A stretch of 64,000 bases of DNA from contig DAOUJI010000031.1 of the NCBI GenBank assembly GCA_034422875.1, positions 31,604 to 95,603 of the forward strand. Reading direction: 5' to 3'. Shown in pieces: positions 5,236 to 51,235 of the stretch. The position numbers were made by a program, and so were the translations under genes. The notes beneath the pieces are model-generated. The model saw only the letters and a program-made list of their open reading frames with translations. It had not been told where the DNA came from and searched no databases. Each line of letters opens with the position of its first letter. The first letter of the stretch is position 1. The DNA comes from Dehalococcoidia bacterium. GTDB taxonomy: Bacteria; Chloroflexota; Dehalococcoidia; Lucifugimonadales; JAGWBF01.

Positions 5236-6078
5236 TCAATAGCTGGGCTTGGTGGAGTACGGGGTCAACTGGAGTTCGTGGGTCCAGCAGGACTTGTCCT
5301 GAGTATGCAGATAGTAGAAAGCCTCGGCTATCTTGACGGGGTTCATCACCAACTCAGGCTGCTGCTGGACACGGGGGAGGGCTCTCGTGCCTGGAGAGTC
5401 TATGGTGCCGTCGATTACCACGTTGGCGACGTGCACGCCGTACTCGGAATACTCCTCCGTCAACGCCTGGGCCAGCGTGCGCATCAACACCCTCGGGTAG
5501 TAGAGCGACTGTCCGGTGTACCGCTTTCTCCCACGCAACGACTGCGAGTTGTTGGAAAACAGAATGGAGCCTTCGCCCCGCTCCCGCATGGCGGGCAACA
5601 CCTCCTGGGCAACCAGGAAGGGACCGCTGCTGGAGATGTGCTGAGCAGTCTCTAATATCTCGTAGGGAATGTATTCCAGCAGTTCTTGTTCCGGCGGAAG
5701 GTCGCGCCCCTCCAGGTAGCCCGCGTTGTAGACCAGCACGTTTGGGTCTCCAGCCTGCTCCCGGATCTCGGCAAAGGCGTTGGATATAGAGTCCCGGGAC
5801 GCCAGGTCCAGCTCCACGATTATGCTTTCGCCGCCCTGTTCCCGGATCGCTGCCTCCAACGGCGCCGCGTTGGCGGTGCTGCGGGTGGTCAACACGGTGA
5901 AGAAGCCCTCTTGCGCAAACTTCTGGGAGATGGCTCCTCCCACTCCCCAGCGTACGCCGACGGGCAGGTCGCTGTCGTCAATGGCCCTGCCGTGGGCCAG
6001 ATGGGTGTTGCGGCCGTCTGCCTGCCACTTGGACGTCGCCCCTATCACGACGGCGACGGGTTTACAGTTCGAGTTCAT
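5236..6078 (-). CDS. atypical SDR-family oxidoreductase
   Basis: Rossmann start VAVVIGATS…GVGGAISQKFAQEG and an NAG motif (VYNAGY). The Gly-rich loop carries an insertion of about 26 aa, and YxxxK is replaced by YYPRVLMR. Confidence 0.6.
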   Translation of the reverse strand: MNSNCKPVAVVIGATSKWQADGRNTHLAHGRAIDDSDLPVGVRWGVGGAISQKFAQEGFFTVLTTRSTANAAPLEAAIREQGGESIIVELDLASRDSISNAFAEIREQAGDPNVLVYNAGYLEGRDLPPEQELLEYIPYEILETAQHISSSGPFLVAQEVLPAMRERGEGSILFSNNSQSLRGRKRYTGQSLYYPRVLMRTLAQALTEEYSEYGVHVANVVIDGTIDSPGTRALPRVQQQPELVMNPVKIAEAFYYLHTQDKSCWTHELQLTPYSTKPSY

Positions 6079-6324
6079 GTCCGATTCCTTTCGTATGGAT
6101 GTCGACTACCTGTGATCACTGACAAATGAGCCTGTTAACGGCGGTTATCCTGTCTGCGTGACAGAAATCCATGAGGCTACTGGTGTGCCAGCATAGAGAG
6201 TGCTCCAAGGAGGACAAACTTCAGGTCGCACCAACAAGATTTGACATGCCAGATTCAGCAGTTAGTCCAGCAAGTGAACTCCAGTCTTTTAAGGGTCGCA
6301 GGACAAAGACCCATCGGTATCTGT

Positions 6325-8436
6325 TTAGTCATATGGACGTTCCTTGACGGAAATCGTATCCTCGGGACCCTTCTGAACGGATGGTACGGACGACAACATA
6401 GACTCTATGTCTTCCGGGAATTTTACTCCGTTGATTTTTTCAAAGGTTGCAACGTTCGAATGTTCCTCACTAAATTCCGACACAATGTCGATCCCCATAT
6501 TTTGAGCGGCCGTCAAGTCTGCTTTAGCCAACTCCCACTCGGACAGGTGTAACCAAACCTGACTCCGATTGTAATAGGCACATGAATCATTCTCATTTAA
6601 TTCGAGAGCCCGGTCGAAGTCCCGTTTAGCATGTTCAAAATCACGTTTGCCTATATAGGCACTACCACGATTGCAATAAGCGTTGGAATCGTCGCTATTC
6701 AGGTCTATAGCCCTATCGTAATCATAGATTGCCCCGTCAAAATCGTCTTGATTTATGTATATCGTACCTCGATTGAAACGAGCACCGTAATGCTCTGGTT
6801 CCAGTTCTATGACTCGGTCGTAATCCCGAAGGGCTCGATCGAAATCACCTTTGCTGATATAAGCCGTACCTCGGTCGTAGTGAGCCTCAACATCGTTCTG
6901 ATCAAGCTCTATCACAAGATCAAAATCTTTGATTGCACTGTCGAAATTGCCTATTCTAAGATAGACCATGGCCCGATTGGAATAAGCATGGGCATGATTG
7001 GGGTCCAGCTCAATAGCCTTGGTAAAGCTCTGCTCCGCTAGATCAAAATCGCCTTTGCGAAGGTAAGCACTCCCTCTATTGCAATAAGCATGGACATTTC
7101 TCGAATCAAGCTCTATAGCCCGGTCAAAGTCACTGATGGCAAGGTTAAAGTCATCTTGACTGAGGCGTGAAATGGCCCGGTAATAATAGCCAGAAGAATT
7201 GTTCGGGTCCAATCCAATCAAACTGTCGCAGTCCTGTATGGCTAGTGTGAATTCGGTCTTGTTAACATACGCAACGGCTCGGTATTGATAACCATACGAG
7301 TTGCCTGGATCCAATTCAATCAACTTGCAACAGTCCTGAATGGCTAGGTCAAATTCATTTTTGTTGACATAGGCAACGGCGCGATGATGATAAGCACTAA
7401 CATCCCGTGGATCTAACTCTATTGCCTGGCTGTAGTCTCTTATAGCTCGATCGATTTCACCTTTGCTAATGTAAGCATCACCACGATGGTAATAGACATG
7501 GGAATATCTGGGGTTCAAATCTATCGCTTGGTTATAGTCGTGAATTGCATGGTCTATATCGCCCGTACCTCTATACACATTGCCCCGGAGGATATAGGCG
7601 TGGTCCATTCGAGGGTCGAATTCGATGGCTTCTGTATAGTGTTCGATCGCTTGTTCGTAGTTACCTTCCTCGGCCCGGGTCACTCCAAGAGTAACCTCTG
7701 CGTTGGCTCTATAACGGACATTCTCTAGCCTAATAAAGCCATGTAGATCATTGAATACAGTTTCAGGAAATACGCCGTGGCAATTGCGGAGGTAACGAAG
7801 TATCGGTTGTTTTAGGTCTTTGGAAATGTCGACAACATCGTAGTCTTCTATCACTCCCTCTGGTGGGAGCACGAAGATGCTGTGTTGAGCAATAACACGA
7901 TTAGCAGTTCTCCGTGGTTCTTTGATATAGGTGGTCATTGCACCATCTTTTCGCAACAAAATAACTCGTGCGTCTCGGGTGGGTGCTGCATAGCAAGCAA
8001 AAAACAATGCAATGAGATAGTTCGTTGTGAAGTCTATTAAGTTTGTCTTCCCTCCATAGTGTTGCAATTGGCTCAGGATTTCGAGGTCATCGGTCTCGTC
8101 TGTGTATTCCCTGGCTCTATCCAGGATGCTTTCCTGGATGCTTTCTGCATCAAAATGAGAGGCAAGCCCAACCCCTTCGTATTGCCTGTATAAACTTGAC
8201 GACACCTGATCATAACATTCAGATTCACCACGAAATATGAACTGACCGCTATGTGACATCTTGGTGAGTCTATTAGCGATTTGAAGAACTTCGTCTAGCC
8301 TGTCATCATCCTGATAGGTTGTGTTCGGTTGATTCATATCGGCCCAGTGACCCCCATAGATTCTTCGATCGCAATCCAGTATAGGTAATCGTAGTTGACA
8401 AAGAAACCCAGTGTGTCGGACATGACGCCAAACCAC
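6325..8436 (-). CDS. FRG-domain protein fused to about 12 tetratricopeptide repeats
   Basis: The N-terminal region carries the eponymous FIFRGESECYDQVSSSLYR motif plus LQHYGGKTNLIDFT. Residues about 245-648 are tandem 34-aa TPRs (consensus …AI.DYD.AIELDP…AY.NRG.AY..KGDFD). The gene is distinctly AT-richer than its flanks. A likelier start is the ATG at 8337 (MNQPNTT…). Confidence 0.8.
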   Translation of the reverse strand: MVWRHVRHTGFLCQLRLPILDCDRRIYGGHWADMNQPNTTYQDDDRLDEVLQIANRLTKMSHSGQFIFRGESECYDQVSSSLYRQYEGVGLASHFDAESIQESILDRAREYTDETDDLEILSQLQHYGGKTNLIDFTTNYLIALFFACYAAPTRDARVILLRKDGAMTTYIKEPRRTANRVIAQHSIFVLPPEGVIEDYDVVDISKDLKQPILRYLRNCHGVFPETVFNDLHGFIRLENVRYRANAEVTLGVTRAEEGNYEQAIEHYTEAIEFDPRMDHAYILRGNVYRGTGDIDHAIHDYNQAIDLNPRYSHVYYHRGDAYISKGEIDRAIRDYSQAIELDPRDVSAYHHRAVAYVNKNEFDLAIQDCCKLIELDPGNSYGYQYRAVAYVNKTEFTLAIQDCDSLIGLDPNNSSGYYYRAISRLSQDDFNLAISDFDRAIELDSRNVHAYCNRGSAYLRKGDFDLAEQSFTKAIELDPNHAHAYSNRAMVYLRIGNFDSAIKDFDLVIELDQNDVEAHYDRGTAYISKGDFDRALRDYDRVIELEPEHYGARFNRGTIYINQDDFDGAIYDYDRAIDLNSDDSNAYCNRGSAYIGKRDFEHAKRDFDRALELNENDSCAYYNRSQVWLHLSEWELAKADLTAAQNMGIDIVSEFSEEHSNVATFEKINGVKFPEDIESMLSSVPSVQKGPEDTISVKERPYD
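6493..7704 (-). repeat. tandem 102-bp coding repeats (TPR array) inside the FRG gene
   Basis: About 12 consecutive 34-codon units share the (E/D)L(D/N)P…AY..RG…Y pattern. The periodicity is visible in both protein and DNA. Confidence 0.8.
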
Positions 8437-8559
8437 GCCCTTATCACGCGATCGATCTGTTACTGTTCCTAGTCCGAACAGGTCGGAAATCGCTGACCCA
8501 AACGGAATTGAGTGACACCCGATGCGAAGATATGACGGTTAGCTTGCCCCTGGCCTACC

Positions 8560-9534
8560 CTACCCCACAGGCGGGAGGCCGGCCTGTTCGCGGACCATGC
8601 TGAGGTATTCGACCATGCCCGTTTCCATGGTGTACTTGGCGTGGAAGCCCAGGTCTTCCACCAGGCGGCGGTTGCTCATCAGCTGGAGAGGGTCCTTCAT
8701 AGGCTCTTGGGACACCGTGATCTGGGCGTCGGGCAGCAGGTCGCGGACGTGGGCGGTCAACTCGCCCATCAGCCTGCGTTCCGACCGCATGTTGAAGACC
8801 CTGTGGGCCGGGTCTGGGAACGTCAGGGCGAGGTACCACACCTCGGCGGCGTCTGCTGCGTATATCCAGTCGGTGGGAGTGTCGTCGGCAGGCATCTCGA
8901 TAGGTTCGCCCAAGGCGGCAAGCTCAGGCTGTACCAGAAAGTGGGGCGTTTCGGGTATGGGCGTCAGATGGCTGGCGTATGACCCGCGCCATCCACGGCC
9001 AAGGCCGAAGACTGTGGTTGGTCTGACGGCCACGTAATCCAGCCCGTGGGCCACGCGGTACTCCTCGGCAATCTTCTCGCCCCAGTGCTTGCAAGCTGAG
9101 TAGAGACCCTTTGGCTGAGGAGGCACGTCCTCGTCAACCTCTTCCAGGGGGTTGGGGTTGCCCCGGTAGACGGCGGCGGAGCTGGCATAGACCACCCGCT
9201 TCACTCCGTGGATGCGGCACGCCTCGAATACGTTGGCCGTGCCCATGCATTGCACCCTGAGATAGGGCACCATCTTCTCTTCCACGGCCCCGCCAAGTAT
9301 GGCGGCAAGGTGGACCACCCTGTCGATGTCGTACCGCTCCATTGTGAGCAGTAGCTCGTGGGGCTCCAGAATGTCCCCCTGGACGACGGTGACCTCGTCA
9401 CGTATATCGGTGATGTTGGACAACCTGGGATACATGTCGAACAGGACGAGTCCCTTTTCGCCCTTTTCCCGCACCATGTGGTGGGCCAGGTATGAGCCCA
9501 GGAATCCCGTGCCGCCGGTGATCATTACAGCCAT
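8560..9534 (-). CDS. NAD-dependent epimerase/dehydratase (extended SDR)
   Basis: N-terminal VMITGGTGFLGSYLAHHM and a YSACKHWGE (YxxxK) motif. The length is 324 aa. Confidence 0.8.
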   Translation of the reverse strand: MAVMITGGTGFLGSYLAHHMVREKGEKGLVLFDMYPRLSNITDIRDEVTVVQGDILEPHELLLTMERYDIDRVVHLAAILGGAVEEKMVPYLRVQCMGTANVFEACRIHGVKRVVYASSAAVYRGNPNPLEEVDEDVPPQPKGLYSACKHWGEKIAEEYRVAHGLDYVAVRPTTVFGLGRGWRGSYASHLTPIPETPHFLVQPELAALGEPIEMPADDTPTDWIYAADAAEVWYLALTFPDPAHRVFNMRSERRLMGELTAHVRDLLPDAQITVSQEPMKDPLQLMSNRRLVEDLGFHAKYTMETGMVEYLSMVREQAGLPPVG

Positions 9535-41502: not shown

Positions 41503-41765
41503 TGGTTTTCGTCCTACTGATAGAAAATCCTGGGTGCCTTTACGGCGCCCGTGCAGACTGCGGCTTGAACTGTGCTCCGAATTAGGCGGCTCGAATGTAC
41601 CAGCTTACGCCCCCTGGCACAAGCCGAAGACTGTAGACAAGTCCTTGTGACTGGGCTTAAATCAAGAGGAGTTGGAGACGTCCCAGTTGACTATCGACCA
41701 GGCTACCGTACTGCTGTAGACTTGGCTCACAAACGGCAGATCCTCGTTTTTGATAGGAGGTATCC

Positions 41766-42200
41766 ATGCTGAACGCTGTGAAACTCGTCGCTGGAATCTA
41801 CATGATAGCCCTGGCTGTCGTGGTGGCCGGACACCTCCTTGCCACGCAGGTCTACGACGCTGGACTGACCGGCACGGCGTTGACCGTTTGGAGAGTGCTG
41901 GACCCGATGATGGTCGTTGGCGTGGCCATGGCGCTTATAGTCGCGGCCTGCAGGAAGCGTTGCGTCTGCAACGACATGACTGACAAGTCAGTCAATCGGG
42001 AGTGGCTGGAGGCGAACTTCACCTTCTACTTCTCCGGTGCGTTGCTGCTGGCTCTCCTTTGGAACTGGTTCGGAGTGGAGTGGTCTAATCCCACCACGTC
42101 AAGCGCTCTGCTGTGGGTGATCACTGACTCGACGCTTCCCTTCCTGATGGGTTCCACTTCTTTCCGGCTTATCCGGGAGGCCACGGCCAAACCGGGGTAG
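41766..42200 (+). CDS. 4-TM membrane protein of unknown function
   Basis: Four hydrophobic helices with GGAGG 6 nt upstream of the ATG. Its stop lies 11 nt before the HigA-like gene. Confidence 0.55.
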   Translation: MLNAVKLVAGIYMIALAVVVAGHLLATQVYDAGLTGTALTVWRVLDPMMVVGVAMALIVAACRKRCVCNDMTDKSVNREWLEANFTFYFSGALLLALLWNWFGVEWSNPTTSSALLWVITDSTLPFLMGSTSFRLIREATAKPG

Positions 42201-42211
42201 AAAGGGGAATC

Positions 42212-42520
42212 ATGCCTGAGAAAGCAACGATGCAGAACCCTCCCCATCCAGGGGAGATTGTGAGGTGGGAATGCCTTGAGCCGCTGGGGTTGACGGTGAC
42301 CAAGGCGGCTAAAGGTCTAGGCGTAACCCGCCAGGCGCTGTCGGACCTGGTTAACGAAAGGGCTGGCATTTCAGTGGAGATGTCCATCCGACTATCCAAG
42401 GCGTTCGGGTCCTCTCCCGAGACCTGGCTGGGGATGCAGACCGCCTACGATCTCTGGCAGGCCCGGGATCGAGCCGATCAAATCAAGGTCGAAAGATTCG
42501 CAACGCCAAACCTGGTTTAA
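42212..42520 (+). CDS. higA: HigA-family antitoxin-type XRE HTH protein
   Basis: HPGEIVRWECLEPLGLTVTKAAKGLGVTRQALSDLVNERAGISVEMSIRLSKAFGSSPETWLGMQ is the canonical HigA/VapI signature. Confidence 0.8.
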   Translation: MPEKATMQNPPHPGEIVRWECLEPLGLTVTKAAKGLGVTRQALSDLVNERAGISVEMSIRLSKAFGSSPETWLGMQTAYDLWQARDRADQIKVERFATPNLV

Positions 42521-42601
42521 CCCAATCTGCCTTGACGCCTCGGTCTCCCAAGTTACAATTGCCTGGAAGGTCTAGCTTCCGGTCAAGAAGGAGAAACTGC
42601 A

Positions 42602-43345
42602 ATGCCGTTCTATACAAGGGGAGATGTCCGCATCCACTATGAGGAGGTCGGTTCCGGTTTTCCGCTTCTCGCGACCCCAGGCGGGGGCTTGAACTCCGTG
42701 ATGAGCAATTGGCCCGGACAGGTGTTCAACGCCATGGAGGAGTTCAAGAACGACTTCCGTTGCATCACCATGGACCAGCGAAACGCAAACGGCGGGGAGT
42801 CCAGCGGTCCGGTCCAGGTCAACGACCCCTGGGGTGCTTTCGCCGACGACCAACTGGGGTTGATGGACCATCTCGGCATTCAGGAGTTCTTGTTCATAGG
42901 CTACTGCATCGGAGGCCCTTTTGCGCTCAAGCTCATTGAACGGGCTCCGGAGCGCGTCAAAGCCGCCGTGCTGTGCCAACCGGTTGGACATGCAAGTGCA
43001 ACACCGGACGCCATGTATGACAGCGGCCGCGATGTCTGGGGCCCGGAACTGTGCTCGCGGCGTCCTGACGTAACGATGGATACGGTTGAACAATACTTGC
43101 ACAACCTTTACCGGGTGCAGCCGGACTTCGTGTACAGTGTTTCGCGGGACTTCGCACGCTCGTGCCAGACACCGATGCTGGTCATGCCCGACGACACGCC
43201 AGCGCACTCCTACGAGGCTGCTATGGACGTGGTGGCGTTGGCACCCAAGGCACAGGTGACGGAGTATCCCTGGAAAGAGTCAGAGGATATAAAGGCCAAG
43301 ACGATCGAGCAGGTGCGTGAGTTCCTCAAGGCCCATCAACCATAG
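42602..43345 (+). CDS. alpha/beta hydrolase with Cys in the nucleophile elbow
   Basis: The motif HYEEVGSGFPLL…FIGYCIGGPFAL has G-x-C-x-G where G-x-S-x-G is expected. A late Asp/His context is present (MPDDTPAHS). Confidence 0.7.
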   Translation: MPFYTRGDVRIHYEEVGSGFPLLATPGGGLNSVMSNWPGQVFNAMEEFKNDFRCITMDQRNANGGESSGPVQVNDPWGAFADDQLGLMDHLGIQEFLFIGYCIGGPFALKLIERAPERVKAAVLCQPVGHASATPDAMYDSGRDVWGPELCSRRPDVTMDTVEQYLHNLYRVQPDFVYSVSRDFARSCQTPMLVMPDDTPAHSYEAAMDVVALAPKAQVTEYPWKESEDIKAKTIEQVREFLKAHQP

Positions 43346-43362
43346 GAAGTGACCGCACTGCC

Positions 43363-43686
43363 TTGAACTACCAGGATTGCCGGCGCCTGTTGGCAGACAT
43401 GGGGATTTGGTCTCCGCCGCGCCCAGGACCGCGCAACCGGAGACTGCGCAGGGGACACCGTGACGGGCATCCTATTCCAGGTGTCTACCTCAACGAAACC
43501 GCTGACGGTGCAGCCTATCTGACCCTCAACAGCAGATGCCTCCTGAAAGCGGATGTAGAACTTTGGTTGGACCTGCCCGTCGATTCGGTGGCTGAATGGG
43601 ACAAGGCCCATCGGAACATCTACCCACCGACTGGTAAAGAGCGGGATGCGCTCCATCAATTGCTCTCAGGCAGCGGTAGGAGCTAG
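43363..43686 (+). CDS. hypothetical protein (strand and start uncertain)
   Basis: A TTG-initiated ORF whose C-terminal two-thirds look protein-like. An equally long antisense ORF (43336-43659) exists, and third-position GC does not discriminate between them. Confidence 0.25.
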   Translation: MNYQDCRRLLADMGIWSPPRPGPRNRRLRRGHRDGHPIPGVYLNETADGAAYLTLNSRCLLKADVELWLDLPVDSVAEWDKAHRNIYPPTGKERDALHQLLSGSGRS

Positions 43687-43757
43687 GGGAAATCGGAGTC
43701 GCAGTTCCTATGGCGTCGCGTTGGGCCGGTTCAGTCTCAACTCTGCGGGTCGAGAGG

Positions 43758-43997
43758 CTAGGATAGACTTCCCAGCTTGTTTGCGAGGTCGCGCCCAGAG
43801 GTGATAGGCGTCAAGGGTCTGCCGTCGGCTCGATAAAGCTCGATCGCTTCTTCAACTATCCGGCAGAGTTCCTGGAACACTTGCTCCTCGTCGGAGCCAT
43901 GACATCCACCGTAGATCAGGCCCGGGGTGCTGCCGACGTAGCACTGATCGTCCTCGGACCATTCAACTATTTTGGCGTACCGAGCGCTATCCTTCAT
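43758..43997 (-). CDS. hicB: HicB-like antitoxin domain protein (orphan)
   Basis: YAKIVEWSEDDQCYVGSTPGLIYGGCHGSDEEQVFQELCRIVEEAIELY matches the HicB N-terminal (RNase H-like partial fold) pattern. No DNA-binding tail and no intact hicA are present. Confidence 0.65.
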   Translation of the reverse strand: MKDSARYAKIVEWSEDDQCYVGSTPGLIYGGCHGSDEEQVFQELCRIVEEAIELYRADGRPLTPITSGRDLANKLGSLS

Positions 43998-44150
43998 TTC
44001 TGGACTCCTCGATGGCGGCCTGTAGTGGAGTCAAGTGAACATGTGGCGATGAATCACGCGCTGGACACGTCACAAAAATGGCTGGCCAAAGGCGGCTTTA
44101 ACCAGAACCTTCGAGTTGGTGGTGAAATTCTAAGGAACCTCTGCACAAAT

Positions 44151-44248
44151 CCCCTCGCCCCTGGTGGGAAAGGGTTAGGGTGAATGGGAATTTCCCGGCA
44201 GCAAGCTATCACCCCCATCCTAGCCTTCCCCCGTCAAGGGGGAAGGGA
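44151..44248. repeat. second bipartite copy of the palindromic repeat family
   Basis: CCCCTCGCCCCTGGTGGGAAAGGGTTAGGGTGAATGGG (44151-44188) and CCTTCCCCCGTCAAGGGGGAAGGGA (44224-44248). The order and motifs match 10751-10946. It lies at the GC-rich/AT-rich transition. Confidence 0.6.
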
Positions 44249-44351
44249 CTTATTCAGAGCTTCCCTAAGACCCCAACAAAGGTAGTGACTGCACCTCACT
44301 CTCATGACCATTGGACCCTGGGAATTTCATGGCCGCCCAAGCGACTTCTGT

Positions 44352-45236
44352 CTATGTGTAAATCTCGCTTAGCCGTGCAAACAGTCGATGCTGACTTAAC
44401 GCCTCGCTGTTCAATGCCGAGTCCAGGACTCCCAGTATGGAACGTTCTCCCCGCCTATACCCCCGCCAGTGGTAACGGTGGTGAAGATACCACCCCACAA
44501 GTTCGAGATAATCGTCGCTGTGAATCACCTTGCGCTCGTCGTCCAATTGGATGGTACCAAGCTCAGTACATGTGGACTCAAATCTCGCTTGTTCGTTAGT
44601 CTTCCCATTACTCTGCAGGCAACGACCCACAAAGTCAGGTCTATCGAAATCTACCCCCGACTCCACAATGGAGCAGCATCTTGTAAGCCACAAGATTGAC
44701 ATTCCCAACCCCAACAATTGGTTGGCCGTTCGGATCACAAAGAGGTCCTTGAGAATGGGCATCAACCAAGAGAATATCTTGTCGACATCCTCGTCGTTTA
44801 GTCCCAAATCCAATAATGGCCCGTCTATGAAAAAGCTCTTCTCACATGTGTATATATCAACGCTAGTGTAATCGGTGTAAAGGAGGTACTTTAAGGCTGT
44901 GAAGGAGTTCAATATGAAGTCGAAATCGCTGTCGACGATACACCTCACACGAGGCAACTCAAAGCTAAATCTCGAGTCGAGTTCTATAGCAAGGGCAATT
45001 ACTCTATTACGATTGCCTTCCCCTAAACCATATGATTCGACAGTATGTCGGCTGACTTCAATTGAATCTATTGGGAATACCGTAACATCCCTATGTCCAA
45101 GGTCGTTCAAGTATTGCAAGTAAATCCTTCGGTCGCGGATACCTTCGACATAGAGATCGCGAAGCTCGGGCTCCAAGGCGTATCTGGCAGCCAGCTCATC
45201 GATGGTCCTACGCTCAATACCGTACTCATCGGACAT
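44352..45236 (-). CDS. DUF4435/TOPRIM-like putative nuclease effector (AriB-like)
   Basis: The sequence DLYVEGIRDRRIY (the conserved Glu context) and RCIVDSDFDFIL (a DxD acidic cluster) give the layout of DUF4435/OLD-type Toprim domains. Its start shares one nucleotide with the upstream stop (TAATG). The gene is AT-rich. Confidence 0.65.
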   Translation of the reverse strand: MSDEYGIERRTIDELAARYALEPELRDLYVEGIRDRRIYLQYLNDLGHRDVTVFPIDSIEVSRHTVESYGLGEGNRNRVIALAIELDSRFSFELPRVRCIVDSDFDFILNSFTALKYLLYTDYTSVDIYTCEKSFFIDGPLLDLGLNDEDVDKIFSWLMPILKDLFVIRTANQLLGLGMSILWLTRCCSIVESGVDFDRPDFVGRCLQSNGKTNEQARFESTCTELGTIQLDDERKVIHSDDYLELVGWYLHHRYHWRGYRRGERSILGVLDSALNSEALSQHRLFARLSEIYT

Positions 45237-46624
45237 TACGGCGTAAGCCTATGGACGTGTTCCATGTGTTTTGTTAATAATTCAATAGAGTGAGTCGCCA
45301 TTAGAAACTGGCATTTTGAGGTTTCGCTCAACTCTAGTAAGCTATCTACGAGGTTCCTCTGCCATTTGATATTCAAAGACAACTCCGGTTCGTCAATTAT
45401 GAATAACGGAGACCGACGACTTGGTGTAATCGTGTTCAAAAACAACAAAAGCAGATGTTGTTCACCGGAGGAGAGTCGATCTGGCCTAAGTGTGCCATCT
45501 GGCAAAGATATTGTTAAGCCGTCGAAAACATTAAACTCCACGCACTTATCGGAAAAGTATCCATTGATGGTTTCAACGAACGAATTGATCAGTTCATAAA
45601 CGTTCTGATGAGCGTTCAACCGAGCCTCTTGTCCGTCCAAGAACGAGCTCAGGAGTTGAACAACAACTGGGAGAGTCGTTGGGTTGGCATTCTCTAAACT
45701 TTCTGACAGGGCCTCAACGTTCATCGCCGAGCCCAATCCGAACCGTTCAAAGTTCCTGCTTGTCGAACCAAGTCTTTGAAGATCTTTGTCTATCTTGGCT
45801 ACTTCTTCAGCTAATGCTTCTCGTTCAGGTGCATTAGCCGATGCGATAGTATTGAGAATATCGACGTACACTTGCCTGGCATCAGTTTCCCCTACAGAGG
45901 ATGCTCGCATCACTTCTCTGTTTAATGCTTGCTCCGTTCTGCGAATAGACTCAAGGAGAGTTGATTCACGACCAACGTCAGTAGGGTCGTTCAACATAAA
46001 TAAACCATCATCTACTAAAACGCCACCTCTATGTTCGTAGACATATGGAAAAGTGGGTGAACGACGGCTCCTCCATTCCCTCCTCGGAACTGCGTCGCCT
46101 TCCAAGTCTCTGGTGTCGCCCAAGTAAAATACATCTAACTCCAGTTCAGATATCTTCTCAGCCAAGGCTTCAGCCTGCGGGGAAATAGAATCAGAGGACA
46201 CTCCTCCTGTTTCAGGGTCAGTGTCGATTCTTGCCACTTCGGGCTGCCCTTCTCCTATCTTAAACTCAAGAGTAAAACCGCCTACAAGCTCTTTTTCCTG
46301 TCTCGTCGCAGTTATGCGGGAAGAATCTGAAAAAACGATGTCGAACCGTCGAAACGGGGTTCTAGCGACATATGTCCTATGTCCTCTGTTGTCGCTCGCT
46401 GACAAGAGATGGAAAATTAATTTCAGGATCGTCGTTTTACCTGTTCCGTTGTCCCCGTAGAGGAGGCAGACCCTGGGCGTTTCAGGGTTGGCAACGTCTT
46501 TGTCGATGGGGATTTCGTAGTCATATCGACCAAACAAATTCTCGACTTCTATTTTGGAAATCGCTCGGGGCACACTTCCTCCATCATGTTCTGCGAGACG
46601 TCTTTTTTCAGACCAGAGGACCAT
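45236..46624 (-). CDS. ABC/SMC-like AAA ATPase (AriA-like)
   Basis: Walker A YGDNGTGKTT, signature-like LSSGEQHLL, Walker B LFIIDEPELSLN and H-loop MATHS, with a helical insert of about 250 aa between the N and C lobes. The ORF track extends to 46783; I prefer the ATG at 46624 (MVLWSEKRR…ISKIEVENLFG). Confidence 0.7.
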   Translation of the reverse strand: MVLWSEKRRLAEHDGGSVPRAISKIEVENLFGRYDYEIPIDKDVANPETPRVCLLYGDNGTGKTTILKLIFHLLSASDNRGHRTYVARTPFRRFDIVFSDSSRITATRQEKELVGGFTLEFKIGEGQPEVARIDTDPETGGVSSDSISPQAEALAEKISELELDVFYLGDTRDLEGDAVPRREWRSRRSPTFPYVYEHRGGVLVDDGLFMLNDPTDVGRESTLLESIRRTEQALNREVMRASSVGETDARQVYVDILNTIASANAPEREALAEEVAKIDKDLQRLGSTSRNFERFGLGSAMNVEALSESLENANPTTLPVVVQLLSSFLDGQEARLNAHQNVYELINSFVETINGYFSDKCVEFNVFDGLTISLPDGTLRPDRLSSGEQHLLLLFLNTITPSRRSPLFIIDEPELSLNIKWQRNLVDSLLELSETSKCQFLMATHSIELLTKHMEHVHRLTP

Positions 46625-46827
46625 TATACACGAGGCTTCGTTAATCCGATGAGATGGACCCGGCAGATCGGACGAGCAGCTAAATGAGAGTCCCGCTCCT
46701 AAACTGAGGGCAGCGGTTGCTGTCGAGAAGGAGCAGGAAATGTCGCAATAGCGCAGGAAGCGCAGCCCAGGTTTCACAGCCAAGGTGGCTCTGGAAGCAC
46801 TTAGGGGCTAGGAGGCAGTGGCCCAGT

Positions 46828-46901
46828 TGGCTGCCCGGCCAGGATTCGAACCTGGGTCAGAGGATCCAAAGTCCCCTGTGATACCACTACACCACCGGGC
46901 A
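46828..46901 (-). tRNA. tRNA-Gln (anticodon TTG), CCA encoded
   Basis: Reverse complement: TGCCCGG-TG-GTGTAGTGGTATCAC-A-GGGGA-CTTTGGA-TCCTC-TGAC-CCAGG-TTCGAAT-CCTGG-CCGGGCA-G-CCA. The U1:A72 pair is typical of bacterial tRNA-Gln. Confidence 0.9.
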
Positions 46902-48299: not shown

Positions 48300-50625
48300 C
48301 GGAGCGCTGGATGGAGTTCGCGTGCTTGACTTCGGACATTACATTCCTGGACCGTTGCTCGGAATGTTCCTGTCGGACCAGGGGGCGAGTGTGACCAAGG
48401 TGGAACGCCCAGGGGGCGACCCCGCCAGAAAACATCCCGCCTTTGCAACCTGGAACAGGGGAAAGCAGTCGGTGGTGTTGGACCTCAAGACGGAAGCAGG
48501 ACAGACACACGCCAGGACGCTGGCCGCCGACTCCGACGTGGTGATAGAGAATTTCAGGCCAGGCGTGGCCGACCGTCTGGGAATCGGGTATGAAACCCTG
48601 TCGGCAGCTAACCCCAGACTAATCTACTGCTCCCTACCCGGATTCGGTGAGGGCAGCCCGCACAGACAAAGCCGTGGCTGGGAACCCATCGTAAGCGCCG
48701 CGACCGGCCTCTACGAACCCGCCAGAGATTCCGACGGCCCGGTTTACACGCCCGTCCCCGCAGCCAGCACATTCAGCGCAATTATCGGAGCGGTTTCAGT
48801 AACTATGGCTCTCATAGCCCGCCGCCGCAACGGCAAGGGACAGCGGATCGAGGTCCCTCTCCATAGCGCCATATTCGCGGCCATGGGGCGCAGGCTGTCG
48901 CTGGTCCCAGGCCCCGAACAGCTCGACCAGTTCCAGATAGCCCGCTGGATAATGAACCACCAATATCAATGCAAGGACGGAAGATGGGTCCAGCACCACG
49001 GCATGTTCGCCCGTTTCTTCCACCGCTTCCTGAACGAGGCGGGCCATCCTGAATGGATTGAAGACACCACTGGACTGTTGGGCGAGGAAGTGGACGATGC
49101 CACGGGGAGAATGTGGCTGGAGAGGTTCGAAGAGGTATTCCGTCAACGGACTGCGGAACAGTGGGAGGCCGACATAAGCAGGGCCGGCGGGGCTTGCGTC
49201 ATGTGTCGGACCGTGGACGAGTGGCTGGAACACGACCACGCCAAGGCAACCGGCATGGTGGTGGAGGTGGATGACGCAACGCTGGGTCCCATGAAGCAGC
49301 CCGGCCTGCAAGTGCGGCTCCACGGCACGCCAGGTGAGGTCCAGGGAAGGGCTCCCTTGCTCGGAGAACACTCCAGCGAAGCCCTTGGCAGTCCTAACAC
49401 CCCGTCTGACGATTCAGCAGCGGGAGCCTCCATGGAAGAAATCATGAGTGCACTCCAGGGGATCAAGGTCCTGGACCTATGCCTTATCCTCGCCGGGCCA
49501 ACCTGCGGACGCACGCTTGCCGAGTTTGGAGCGGAGGTCATCAAGATAGACGACCCTGAGCGGCCATATGACATAACTCAGACCGTGGACGTGAACCGCG
49601 GCAAGAAGAGCCTCATGCTGGACCTGAAGACGGAGAAGGGCAAGGAGGTCTTCTGGAAGCTGCTGGAAGACGCCGACGTGGTGGTTGAGAACAACCGCGC
49701 CGGGGCCATGGAACGTATGGGCCTGGGATACGAGGATATCAAGAAACGCAGGCCGGACATCATCTACGCTTCCATGAACACCTACGGTTACGGAGGACCA
49801 TGGACCGACCGGGCGGGATGGGAGCAGCTTGCTCAAGCAGCCACCGGCATACAGGTGCGCCAGGGAGGACGCGACGGAGCTCCCACCGTGATTCACTACA
49901 CGATAAACGACTACGGCACCGGTATATCGGGAGCATTTGCCGTGGCGCTGGCCCTATACCACCGCAACAAGACCGGCGAGGGCCAGTCGGTCAGCGGGGC
50001 CTTATCCTATACGGCGTGCACCATGCAGTCGCCCTTCTTCCTAGACTATGAGGGCCATCAGCGGAATGAGACGGAAGGGCTGCAATCCAGGGGAAGCTCC
50101 GCTCTGTCGAGCCTGTACAAGGCCGCCGACGGTTGGTTCTACCTCCACGCGCCTGACGAGGAGTCCTGGTCCCGACTGACCAGCGTTGATGGCTTGCCCC
50201 ATCTGGTGGAGGACGAACGGTTCTCCACAGCTGAAACCCGCTCGAACAACGACTCTGCCCTTGGCGCCGAGCTGGCTGCTGCCTTCGCCCAAAGAGAACG
50301 GGCCGAGTGGCTTACAGCCCTGCAGGCCGCAGGCGTCAGCGCAATAGAGAACCTGAGCATTCCCGAATTCAGGGACGATGCTTATGTGCGGCAGGCGGGC
50401 CTCATAGTGAACCGTGTGCTTCCGGCATTGGGCATGGTAGACCACCTTGGAGTCGCGGCCCGGCTTTCTGGAACGCCCGCCCTGCTGGGAGATCCCTCCC
50501 CGGTGCTCGGTGAGCACACCGACGAGATACTCCGTTATGCTGGTTACACAGAAGCTGAGATAGCCGAGATGAAGGCCCAAGGCGTCGCCGTCCAGACCAT
50601 GGACTATCCAGGGAAGCGTGTCTAG
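48292..50625 (+). CDS. tandem fusion of two family-III CoA-transferase (CaiB/BaiF/Frc-like) modules
   Basis: Two copies of the N-terminal signature are present: LDGVRVLDFGHYIPGPLLGMFLSDQGASVTKVERPGGDP and LQGIKVLDLCLILAGPTCGRTLAEFGAEVIKIDDPERP. The ATG at 48292 is preceded by GGAGG. Confidence 0.8.
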   Translation: MANGALDGVRVLDFGHYIPGPLLGMFLSDQGASVTKVERPGGDPARKHPAFATWNRGKQSVVLDLKTEAGQTHARTLAADSDVVIENFRPGVADRLGIGYETLSAANPRLIYCSLPGFGEGSPHRQSRGWEPIVSAATGLYEPARDSDGPVYTPVPAASTFSAIIGAVSVTMALIARRRNGKGQRIEVPLHSAIFAAMGRRLSLVPGPEQLDQFQIARWIMNHQYQCKDGRWVQHHGMFARFFHRFLNEAGHPEWIEDTTGLLGEEVDDATGRMWLERFEEVFRQRTAEQWEADISRAGGACVMCRTVDEWLEHDHAKATGMVVEVDDATLGPMKQPGLQVRLHGTPGEVQGRAPLLGEHSSEALGSPNTPSDDSAAGASMEEIMSALQGIKVLDLCLILAGPTCGRTLAEFGAEVIKIDDPERPYDITQTVDVNRGKKSLMLDLKTEKGKEVFWKLLEDADVVVENNRAGAMERMGLGYEDIKKRRPDIIYASMNTYGYGGPWTDRAGWEQLAQAATGIQVRQGGRDGAPTVIHYTINDYGTGISGAFAVALALYHRNKTGEGQSVSGALSYTACTMQSPFFLDYEGHQRNETEGLQSRGSSALSSLYKAADGWFYLHAPDEESWSRLTSVDGLPHLVEDERFSTAETRSNNDSALGAELAAAFAQRERAEWLTALQAAGVSAIENLSIPEFRDDAYVRQAGLIVNRVLPALGMVDHLGVAARLSGTPALLGDPSPVLGEHTDEILRYAGYTEAEIAEMKAQGVAVQTMDYPGKRV

Positions 50626-51235
50626 CGAAGGTCCTCCTTTGAACGCCACAGGGCATCCAGTGTTCACAATTGGACACTCCAATCACTCCCTGGACACGTT
50701 TCTTTCGTTGCTGGGAACACATGGAGTTGACTTCGTCGCAGACGTTCGTTCGGCGCCCTATAGCCGGTGGGTCCCCCATTTCAACAAGACCTCTTTGGAT
50801 GCTGCTTTGAAAAAGGCTGGGGTAGCGTACGAATACGTGGGCGAGGAACTGGGAGGCAGACCGGCCGACCCTTCCTGTTATGACGAGAACGGCCAGGTGA
50901 TTTACAACATGGTGGCCGCAACCGGTTCATTCCAGGATGCCCTCAGCGTCGTGATGCACTCAGCCTATGAGCGGCGGACCGCTCTTATGTGCGCAGAGAA
51001 GGAACCGCTGGAATGCCACCGGACGTTGCTGGTTGCCAAGGCACTCACGGAGCAGGGGATAGCTGTCGAGCACATCCTCGCCGACGGCGGGATGGAAAGC
51101 TACGACGAGGCTCTAGACAGACTGTTGGACACCTTCAAGCTGCCACGAAACGGAGATATGTTCCGCACCCGGGGCGACGTGGTAGCCGAGGCGTTTACAC
51201 TCCAAGCGAAGAAGGTCGCCTACGTCCGGCAATAG
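50618..51235 (+). CDS. DUF488-family protein
   Basis: FTIGHSNHSLDTFLSLLGTHGVDFVADVRSAPYSRWVPHF…CAEKEPLECHR is the DUF488 signature. The GTG start overlaps the upstream stop. Confidence 0.75.
   Translation: MSSEGPPLNATGHPVFTIGHSNHSLDTFLSLLGTHGVDFVADVRSAPYSRWVPHFNKTSLDAALKKAGVAYEYVGEELGGRPADPSCYDENGQVIYNMVAATGSFQDALSVVMHSAYERRTALMCAEKEPLECHRTLLVAKALTEQGIAVEHILADGGMESYDEALDRLLDTFKLPRNGDMFRTRGDVVAEAFTLQAKKVAYVRQ

Follow-up and report, generated by a model that had tools for sequence, protein, structure and literature searches.

What is encoded by two overlapping genes of an uncultured Dehalococcoidia bacterium, an ATP-binding cassette (ABC)-type ATPase and a 294-aa protein with nuclease-like acidic motifs, and do they form an anti-phage system? 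The pair lies on the minus strand of a stretch of 64,000 nucleotides (GenBank assembly GCA_034422875.1, contig DAOUJI010000031.1, positions 31,604 to 95,603), hereafter called the window and numbered from its first letter. An original prediction, made from the sequence alone, had proposed a PARIS-like module of AriA/AriB architecture. This proposal is supported by the homology of both proteins, by their pairing and by their accessory status, and the locus is very likely a two-gene anti-phage module of the PARIS family (class 4 OLD-like), which the bacterium acquired horizontally downstream of a tRNA-Gln gene. PARIS is present in 5.2% of prokaryotic genomes, in diverse clades (Rousset 2022, PMC9122126); a limited literature search returned no paper specifically on PARIS in Dehalococcoidia.

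The minus strand carries two open reading frames (ORFs), a maximal ORF at 45236-46783 (515 aa, TTG start) and a second one at 44352-45236 (294 aa). As the original prediction had read, they overlap in a TAATG stop/start sequence (45234-45238): the TAA stop of the ariA-like gene (45238-45236) and the ATG start of the ariB-like gene (45236-45234) have one base in common, which suggests that the two are translationally coupled. Close homologues of the ATPase are 443-445 aa long and begin with MPRAISKIEV, whose counterpart in the window is the GTG at 46573, and the 70 additional codons of the maximal ORF reach the neighbouring tRNA-Gln gene and cross a conserved TGTATAAT box. Because the homologue N-termini align at this GTG and the extension crosses the box, the ATPase most likely starts at 46573 and not at the TTG 46783, giving a protein of 445 aa (45236-46573). 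All the motifs listed by the original prediction were found, namely GDNGTGKTT, LSSGEQ, LFIIDEPE and ATHS in the ATPase and VEGIRDRRIY and CIVDSDFDF in its partner. They are not a chance pattern, since alignments of 63 ATPase homologues and 135 partner homologues show little or no variation at these residues.

Sequence, profile and predicted-fold comparisons all identified the 445-aa ATPase as an AriA homologue. Its motifs comprise the Walker A at G40-T48, the signature at S368-E371, about 320 residues further on, the Walker B/catalytic residues D394-E395 and the H-loop histidine H428. Besides many partial P-loop matches, Pfam returned AAA_21 (3.8e-20, 73.6 bits) and AAA_15 (2.8e-18, 67.1 bits), both in excess of the cut-offs that Rousset 2022 applied (27 and 32), and the best PADLOC models were those of AriA (6.3e-25). 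When the ATPase was compared to all PDB sequences with phmmer, E. coli AriA ranked first (8ux9_B and 8v45_A, E = 4e-14) with an alignment that ran end to end (query 25-464 against 4-438 of 464), whereas transporter nucleotide-binding domains (NBDs), retron PtuA and OLD reached only E = 1e-5 to 1e-2, at the motif ends only. An AlphaFold2 (AF2) model built with the 63 homologues (pLDDT 83) was then searched against the PDB with Foldseek. The 16 best matches were all AriA chains (E = 1.2e-18 to 1.2e-11, best TM 0.61-0.70), followed by an Smc head (8e-11) and then by retron PtuA and Rad50, so that the best AriA E-value is lower than those of SMC, Rad50 and retron PtuA by about seven orders of magnitude. 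With AriA the best match by both phmmer and Foldseek, the ATPase does not group with the transporter or repair ABC families, an outcome that the original prediction had named as contrary to it. Its estimate of a helical insert of about 250 aa held only in part: a helical, coiled-coil part exists, but it covers only about 135 residues of the model (205-339), the remainder of the region between Walker A and signature being a beta-rich lobe and a poorly conserved, disordered loop (166-202). The least conserved blocks of the protein are residues 101-140 and 161-200, which are partly disordered, and the region 101-200, placed roughly at insertion IS1 of E. coli AriA, differs from it. This variability is consistent with the poor conservation reported for the trigger-facing surfaces of AriA in the PARIS literature cited here.

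The 294-aa partner (44352-45236) carries E31 within VEGIRDRRIY and D102 and D104 within CIVDSDFDF, with an offset of 71 residues between E31 and D102, as part of an acidic cluster formed by E31, D35, D102, D104, D122, D127 and D242. Among its 135 relatives, E31, G32, D102, D104 and D242 are invariant, D35 (131/135), D122 (129/135), Y129 and R169 vary only rarely, and no residue other than E or D occurs at position 127. Three arginines, R34, R36 and R37, come after E31 (81 of the 135 have K or R at position 36); their resemblance to the AriB alpha-2 arginines that contact AriA is suggestive only. The PADLOC AriB model PDLC02983 matched residues 27-135 (4.6e-5), and scans with NCBIfam and PHROGs gave no usable match. 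In a database clustered at 90% identity we found 52 relatives, 48 of which were aligned: 24 matched PF14491 (DUF4435; best 4.5e-13) and 36 matched PADLOC AriB models (best 1.7e-14), while at E≤1e-3 none matched AbiLii-type or other nuclease models, bar one stray weak match to PDC-M38B. The AF2 model of the partner (pLDDT 93.3, pTM 0.89) had only two significant Foldseek matches in the PDB, both of them AriB (8ux9_A, E = 3.9e-7; 8v46_D, E = 7.9e-7), the next match being at E = 0.2; they span the full length of the protein, with about 310 aligned columns and a TM of 0.55-0.57. An hhalign comparison of the 135-relative profile with the fragment of E. coli AriB recovered from the alignment gave E = 2.7e-5 and a probability of 74%. 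The hidden Markov model (HMM) alignment and hhalign agree on the residue correspondence, in which E31, D35, N75-R76, D102, D104 and D127 of the window protein align with E26, D30, N66-R67, D88, E90 and E122 of E. coli AriB, respectively. In the latter, E26, D30, D88, E90 and E122 are described as a two-metal Toprim site (PMC11464382), and the E26A substitution abolishes defence (PMC11464382; PMC12409363). The PADLOC AriB model, the homologues and the predicted fold thus tie the 294-aa protein to DUF4435/AriB, significantly at the family and fold level, and by these sequence and model comparisons it is a divergent AriB/DUF4435-type Toprim protein.

The association of the two genes extends beyond the window. 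In all 10 other loci that were retrieved with a relative of the 294-aa protein, among them one IMG/VR viral contig and loci from the genomes of Streptomyces, Pirellulaceae, Latescibacterota and Acidobacteriota, a relative of the ATPase is encoded directly upstream on the same strand, abutting or overlapping. The identities of ATPase and partner to the window proteins fall in parallel from locus to locus (94/88, 87/83, 86/78, 67/64, 50/45 and about 33/30%), which mirrors the co-evolution of ariA and ariB reported previously in the cited PARIS literature. The clade of AriB-like proteins of about 290 aa is large, with 1,844 clusters at 50% identity (E≤1e-3), or 813 at E≤1e-30, and its members come almost entirely from metagenomes and uncultured bacteria. 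An exact-sequence look-up of the 294-aa window protein in an assembly index returned no record, and among the GTDB representative genomes the pair was found at four loci only, all of them distant, and in no close relative.

In order to compare the locus with its orthologous site in related genomes, we used four Dehalococcoidia metagenome-assembled genomes (L008 to L011), found via the flanking gene for a major facilitator superfamily (MFS) transporter. Their DNA is collinear with the window on both flanks of the pair at about 83% identity, which also bears out the Chloroflexota-like lineage proposed from the sequence. In blastn alignments, window positions 44076-46827 are missing at the orthologous site in all four relatives. 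The equivalents of window positions 44075 and 46828 are contiguous in L008 and run straight into the tRNA-Gln gene, and this empty site reads AAAAATGGCTGCCCGG. The inserted cassette, 2,749 bp long (44079-46827, with boundaries ambiguous by a junction repeat of 6-9 bp), has a GC content of 48.6%, compared to 58.1% and 60.1% in its flanks. The right-hand junction is the 3' end of an intact tRNA-Gln(UUG) gene on the minus strand (46828-46901; found by ARAGORN and scored at 64.3 bits by the Rfam tRNA model), and the same tRNA-Gln is kept in all four relatives. The junction repeat, TGGCTG(G/C)CC, occurs on the left at 44079-44087 and on the right at 46828-46836, within the tRNA-Gln 3' end, and could be the vestige of an att core or, given its shortness, mere microhomology. 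A longer duplication of the tRNA 3' end, of the att type, was not found at the cassette, no integrase or transposase is encoded among the ORFs of the insert, the cassette ends are not conserved in two copies found elsewhere (L002 and L014), and an Rfam scan of the cassette and its flanks detected only the tRNA. The cassette is an accessory, horizontally acquired element located directly downstream of tRNA-Gln, and its absence from four out of four relatives is the opposite of the core-gene synteny that would have spoken against the original prediction. A functional link between a tRNase-like effector and the adjacent tRNA-Gln was considered and rejected: the tRNA is simply the insertion site, because it is intact and also present in the relatives that lack the cassette.

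Several candidate signals accompany the two genes. The TGTATAAT sequence, an extended -10-like box located about 50 nt upstream of the GTG start (46623-46630, minus strand), is also found in the closest copy of the cassette, and from this conservation we infer that it may be a promoter element; a generic scan for sigma-70 promoters called none on the coding strand, and the box lacks a good -35. At the downstream end, a terminator-like hairpin with a T-run, recognised by consensus match only (44082-44105, minus strand), overlaps the left junction. The 3' untranslated part of the cassette also holds a 132-bp element (44135-44266) with a perfect palindrome, CCTTCCCCCGTCAAGGGGGAAGG, at 44224-44246. 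This element occurs once in the window and entered the window copy secondarily, since it is missing from the 92%-identical copy. A stretch of 41 nt of it is 90% identical in an unrelated locus (L001, 15945-15985), which suggests a small dispersed repeat resembling miniature inverted-repeat transposable elements (MITEs) or repetitive extragenic palindromic (REP) sequences.

The closest copy (L013, Logan contig SRR31984834_1330352, 2,750 bp) is 92% identical to the cassette overall, with 94% identity for the ATPase and 88% for the partner, and its flanks differ from those of the window, with an OmpR-like C-terminus upstream and no tRNA. The near-equal lengths of this contig and of the insert (2,750 and 2,749 bp) appear to reflect either coincidence or an assembly break at a polymorphic site. 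Cassettes with 83-85% identity are flanked by IS21, IS110 and DDE transposases together with a type ISP restriction-modification (RM) gene, or by a second AAA_15-type pair; a 67% identical cassette adjoins an integrase fragment, transposases, an MmeI-type RM gene and HicB; and PIN genes also neighbour some copies. Such contexts are typical of hotspots for defence genes or mobile cargo, and the opposite of what characterises a core gene. On the contig of one 83%-identical copy (L002) a second ATPase of 468 aa (AAA_15/AAA_21/AAA_23/SMC_N) lies 3.4 kb downstream and is followed by an abutting ORF of 210 aa for which Pfam gave no match; this second pair (L002, 7692-9730) may be a different ABC-ATPase-based defence system in the same island.

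How closely does this module resemble the characterised PARIS of E. coli B185 (PDB 8UX9, 8V45-8V49)? Both are two-gene, co-oriented operons with the ATPase gene first. The ATPases are of similar length (464 aa for AriA and 445 aa in the window) and both contain a helical insert; the nucleases (about 305 and 294 aa) have the same overall fold according to the predicted model and the same acidic metal-site residues (E, D, DxD/E and E/D), and the NR motif of AriB (N66-R67) has its counterpart in N75-R76. Like the window cassette, PARIS is accessory and horizontally mobile and lies near other defence and toxin-antitoxin (TA) genes. The two differ in their setting, the window cassette lying at a tRNA-Gln 3' end in an uncultured Dehalococcoidia host and not in the P4 satellite hotspot of E. 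coli PARIS, and the Ocr-like trigger of the E. coli system is not to be assumed for the window pair. As far as sequence and predicted structure can tell, the defining features of PARIS that lend themselves to testing are present here: an AriA-type ATPase, an AriB/DUF4435-type Toprim partner with the putative catalytic acids, adjacency and co-evolution. The window protein falls short of the original PARIS rule, under which the partner scores at least 27 bits on PF14491, and the locus would escape the 2022 MacSyFinder rule. The shortfall reflects how far the model reaches, not the absence of a biological feature.

A number of observations nevertheless weigh against the assignment to PARIS. Most concern the 294-aa protein, which matches no Pfam family at E≤1 and hence has no DUF4435 match of its own. 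The original identification of a DUF4435/Toprim nuclease therefore stands through PADLOC, the homologues and the fold, but not through Pfam on the window protein itself; the profile-HMM comparison that it had called for returned AAA_15 and AAA_21 for the ATPase and DUF4435 for half of the 48 homologues, but not for their relative in the window. A phmmer search of the 294-aa protein against the PDB found no relevant match, a profile of 48 sequences did not recover AriB there, and a profile of 135 sequences ranked AriB first but with E = 0.42, which is not significant by itself. The TM values of the two Foldseek matches to AriB are moderate, and the identity between the window proteins and the E. 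coli ones is just 15-19%, in agreement with the divergence noted by the original prediction. Nothing conserved corresponds to residues K60 and K64 of E. coli AriB: the segment that takes their place (63-74) is five residues longer and highly variable. Searches of viral contigs returned only one distant relative, and none was found in plasmid or cultured-phage records. Finally, that the window pair would form a hexamer, sequester the nuclease, sense a trigger and cleave tRNA is in each case carried over from the E. coli system.

With these points in mind, we asked whether other readings would account equally well for the data. The pair could belong to another family that combines an ABC ATPase with a Toprim protein, such as AbiL, MADS3-4 or the class 1-3 OLD, Gabija and retron effectors, in which case it might act on DNA or sense inhibition of RecBCD or multicopy single-stranded DNA (msDNA). 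All these systems use AAA_15/21 ATPases that are phylogenetically intertwined, the window ATPase also matches, at lower scores, the PADLOC models of PtuA (1.8e-17), ATPase-Toprim_I-B (3.8e-15), mad3 (3.1e-14) and AbiLi (2.3e-13), and the sequence links of the partner to E. coli AriB are weak. However, AriA models and structures are clearly the best for the ATPase, and the partner family matches AriB models only, apart from the single stray match mentioned above. AbiL (AbiLi with the RloB/Toprim-like AbiLii) and MADS3-4 likewise join an AAA_15/21 ABC ATPase to a separate Toprim-type partner, but AriA outscores AbiLi and mad3 for the window ATPase, and AbiLii/RloB-type models are matched neither by the window partner (E≤1) nor by its 48-member family (E≤1e-3); AbiL was rejected on the latter ground. 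The P2 Old, Gabija GajA and retron Eco8 effector proteins (class 1-3 OLD) also unite an ABC ATPase with Toprim chemistry at a two-metal acidic site, but there the two domains are fused in a single polypeptide, and a GajB helicase or a retron reverse transcriptase serves as partner. We found no fusion, UvrD-like helicase, HNH gene or reverse transcriptase adjoining the pair, in the window or in the homologous loci, and Gabija and class 1-2 OLD were rejected accordingly. Moreover, OLD and GajA structures are available in the PDB, yet neither gave a significant fold match to the 294-aa model, and OLD (6p74) matched the ATPase only weakly (E = 0.004). Septu and retron PtuAB were rejected because the partner is Toprim/DUF4435-like and not HNH and because the PtuA structures are only distant fold matches of the ATPase (E about 1e-9 to 1e-10, against 1e-18 for AriA). 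We consider membership of any of these other families very improbable.

A second possibility is that the pair is mainly a selfish, TA-like addiction cassette, with the nuclease as toxin and the ATPase as antitoxin, which would maintain itself by post-segregational killing and have no dedicated phage sensing. PARIS is mechanistically TA-like, to the point that the PDB depositors label AriA 'antitoxin', the cassette consists of no more than two genes, which bring along a promoter-like box and a terminator-like hairpin of their own, and HigA-like and HicB-like genes occur in the same stretch. A simple antitoxin, however, needs neither full catalytic motifs nor a large, rapidly varying surface region, both of which the ATPase keeps, as expected for a sensor engaged in an arms race; in addition, copies of the cassette cluster with RM systems, and phage sensing is proven for the homologous system of E. 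coli. We give very little credence to an addiction cassette of this kind. The view that the ATPase is a housekeeping repair or chromosome-maintenance protein (RecF/RecN/SbcC/SMC-like) or a transporter ATPase, followed by an unrelated ORF, is effectively refuted: the weak matches to SMC_N (1.2e-10), ABC_tran (2.1e-5), RecF and transporter NBD models are partial, being confined to the Walker A or the signature/Walker B ends, and some JGI records label homologues 'EcfA2', but the full-length sequence and fold matches go to AriA, the pair has a foreign GC content and is missing from four close relatives, and the window contains no permease gene as partner.

The locus is thus best described as a divergent member of the already known PARIS kind, and on present evidence it is not mechanistically surprising. 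In E. coli PARIS, an AriA hexamer sequesters AriB monomers with a 6:3 stoichiometry, arginines of AriB alpha-2 touching AriA (cited PARIS literature). By analogy with the E. coli B185 system (Burman 2024; Deep 2024; Belukhina 2025), from which we infer the complex, the trigger sensing and the RNA target of the window pair, the 445-aa ATPase would oligomerise via its helical insert (helices 205-339 in the model) into a scaffold on which the 294-aa Toprim nuclease would be kept, as inactive monomers, close to the ATP sites. Binding of a phage protein to the variable surface of the ATPase would release the nuclease in an ATP-dependent manner; the freed nuclease would dimerise and, using a two-metal site formed by E31, D35, D102, D104 and D127, could nick the anticodon stem-loops of host tRNAs, leading to translation arrest and abortion of the infection.

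Compared to E. coli PARIS, the window pair probably has another trigger and another exact RNA target. A difference in specificity is suggested by the location of the strongest ATPase variability in blocks 101-140 and 161-200 and by the lack of conservation of the segment equivalent to K60/K64: the helix bearing these two lysines is needed for defence in E. coli and has been modelled as gripping the anticodon loop like 'tweezers' (cited PARIS literature). Going one step further, the clade of AriB-like proteins of about 290 aa might constitute a functionally distinct branch of PARIS, whose members may cut other tRNAs or another RNA and may sense a class of phage proteins new as PARIS trigger. 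This suggestion, which we put forward tentatively and consider rather less probable than not, is based on the absence of the lysine 'tweezers', on the conservation of D242 (invariant) and D122 (129/135), and on a putative trigger-binding region of the ATPase that is unrelated to that of E. coli AriA; D122 aligns with Leu117 of E. coli AriB, and the alignments to that protein stop short of D242.

Other features of the window were noted alongside the cassette. The stretch between an alpha/beta-hydrolase gene and tRNA-Gln (window 41700-44075) varies among the relatives. In the window it contains an HTH_3/HigA-like gene of 102 aa (42212-42520) with no obvious HigB partner and a HicB-like ORF of 79 aa (43758-43997), which has no Pfam match and was identified by reading its sequence; in L011 the same stretch (6427-9411) holds an insert of about 3 kb with a split N6-methyltransferase/type IIG-like gene (NPPF motif). 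A second patch of low GC content (0.47, compared to about 0.60) is located around 6000-8500 and holds a single ORF of 703 aa (6325-8436, minus strand), which encodes an FRG domain (PF08867, 1.1e-13) at its N-terminus together with a long array of tetratricopeptide repeats (TPRs). Its N-terminus matches 13 PADLOC 'PDC-S15' candidate-defence models (best 6.2e-21), and the patch may represent another horizontally gained defence candidate, one that consists of a single gene. A DUF488 gene (PF04343, 3.8e-22; 50618-51235) located at 4 kb distance seems not to belong to the insertion, because its segment aligns with the relatives L008 and L011.

The cassette provides a cleanly delimited example of a PARIS-type module in the Dehalococcoidia, a class for which hardly any experimental phage biology exists. 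It also exposes a gap in detection: the Pfam DUF4435 model, which matched only half of the sampled members, overlooks part of the divergent AriB clade, and surveys based on DUF4435 undercount PARIS in environmental lineages. The comparison with the empty sites indicates that a self-contained unit of 2.7 kb, with a predicted promoter, ariA, ariB and a predicted terminator, moves alone, and such a unit is easy to synthesise. If the trigger or the tRNA target does differ from that of E. coli PARIS, the range of sensing and targeting of PARIS would be broadened, its overall working picture being unchanged. If the clade does represent a distinct branch of PARIS, it would offer a handle on the phage biology of the Dehalococcoidia.

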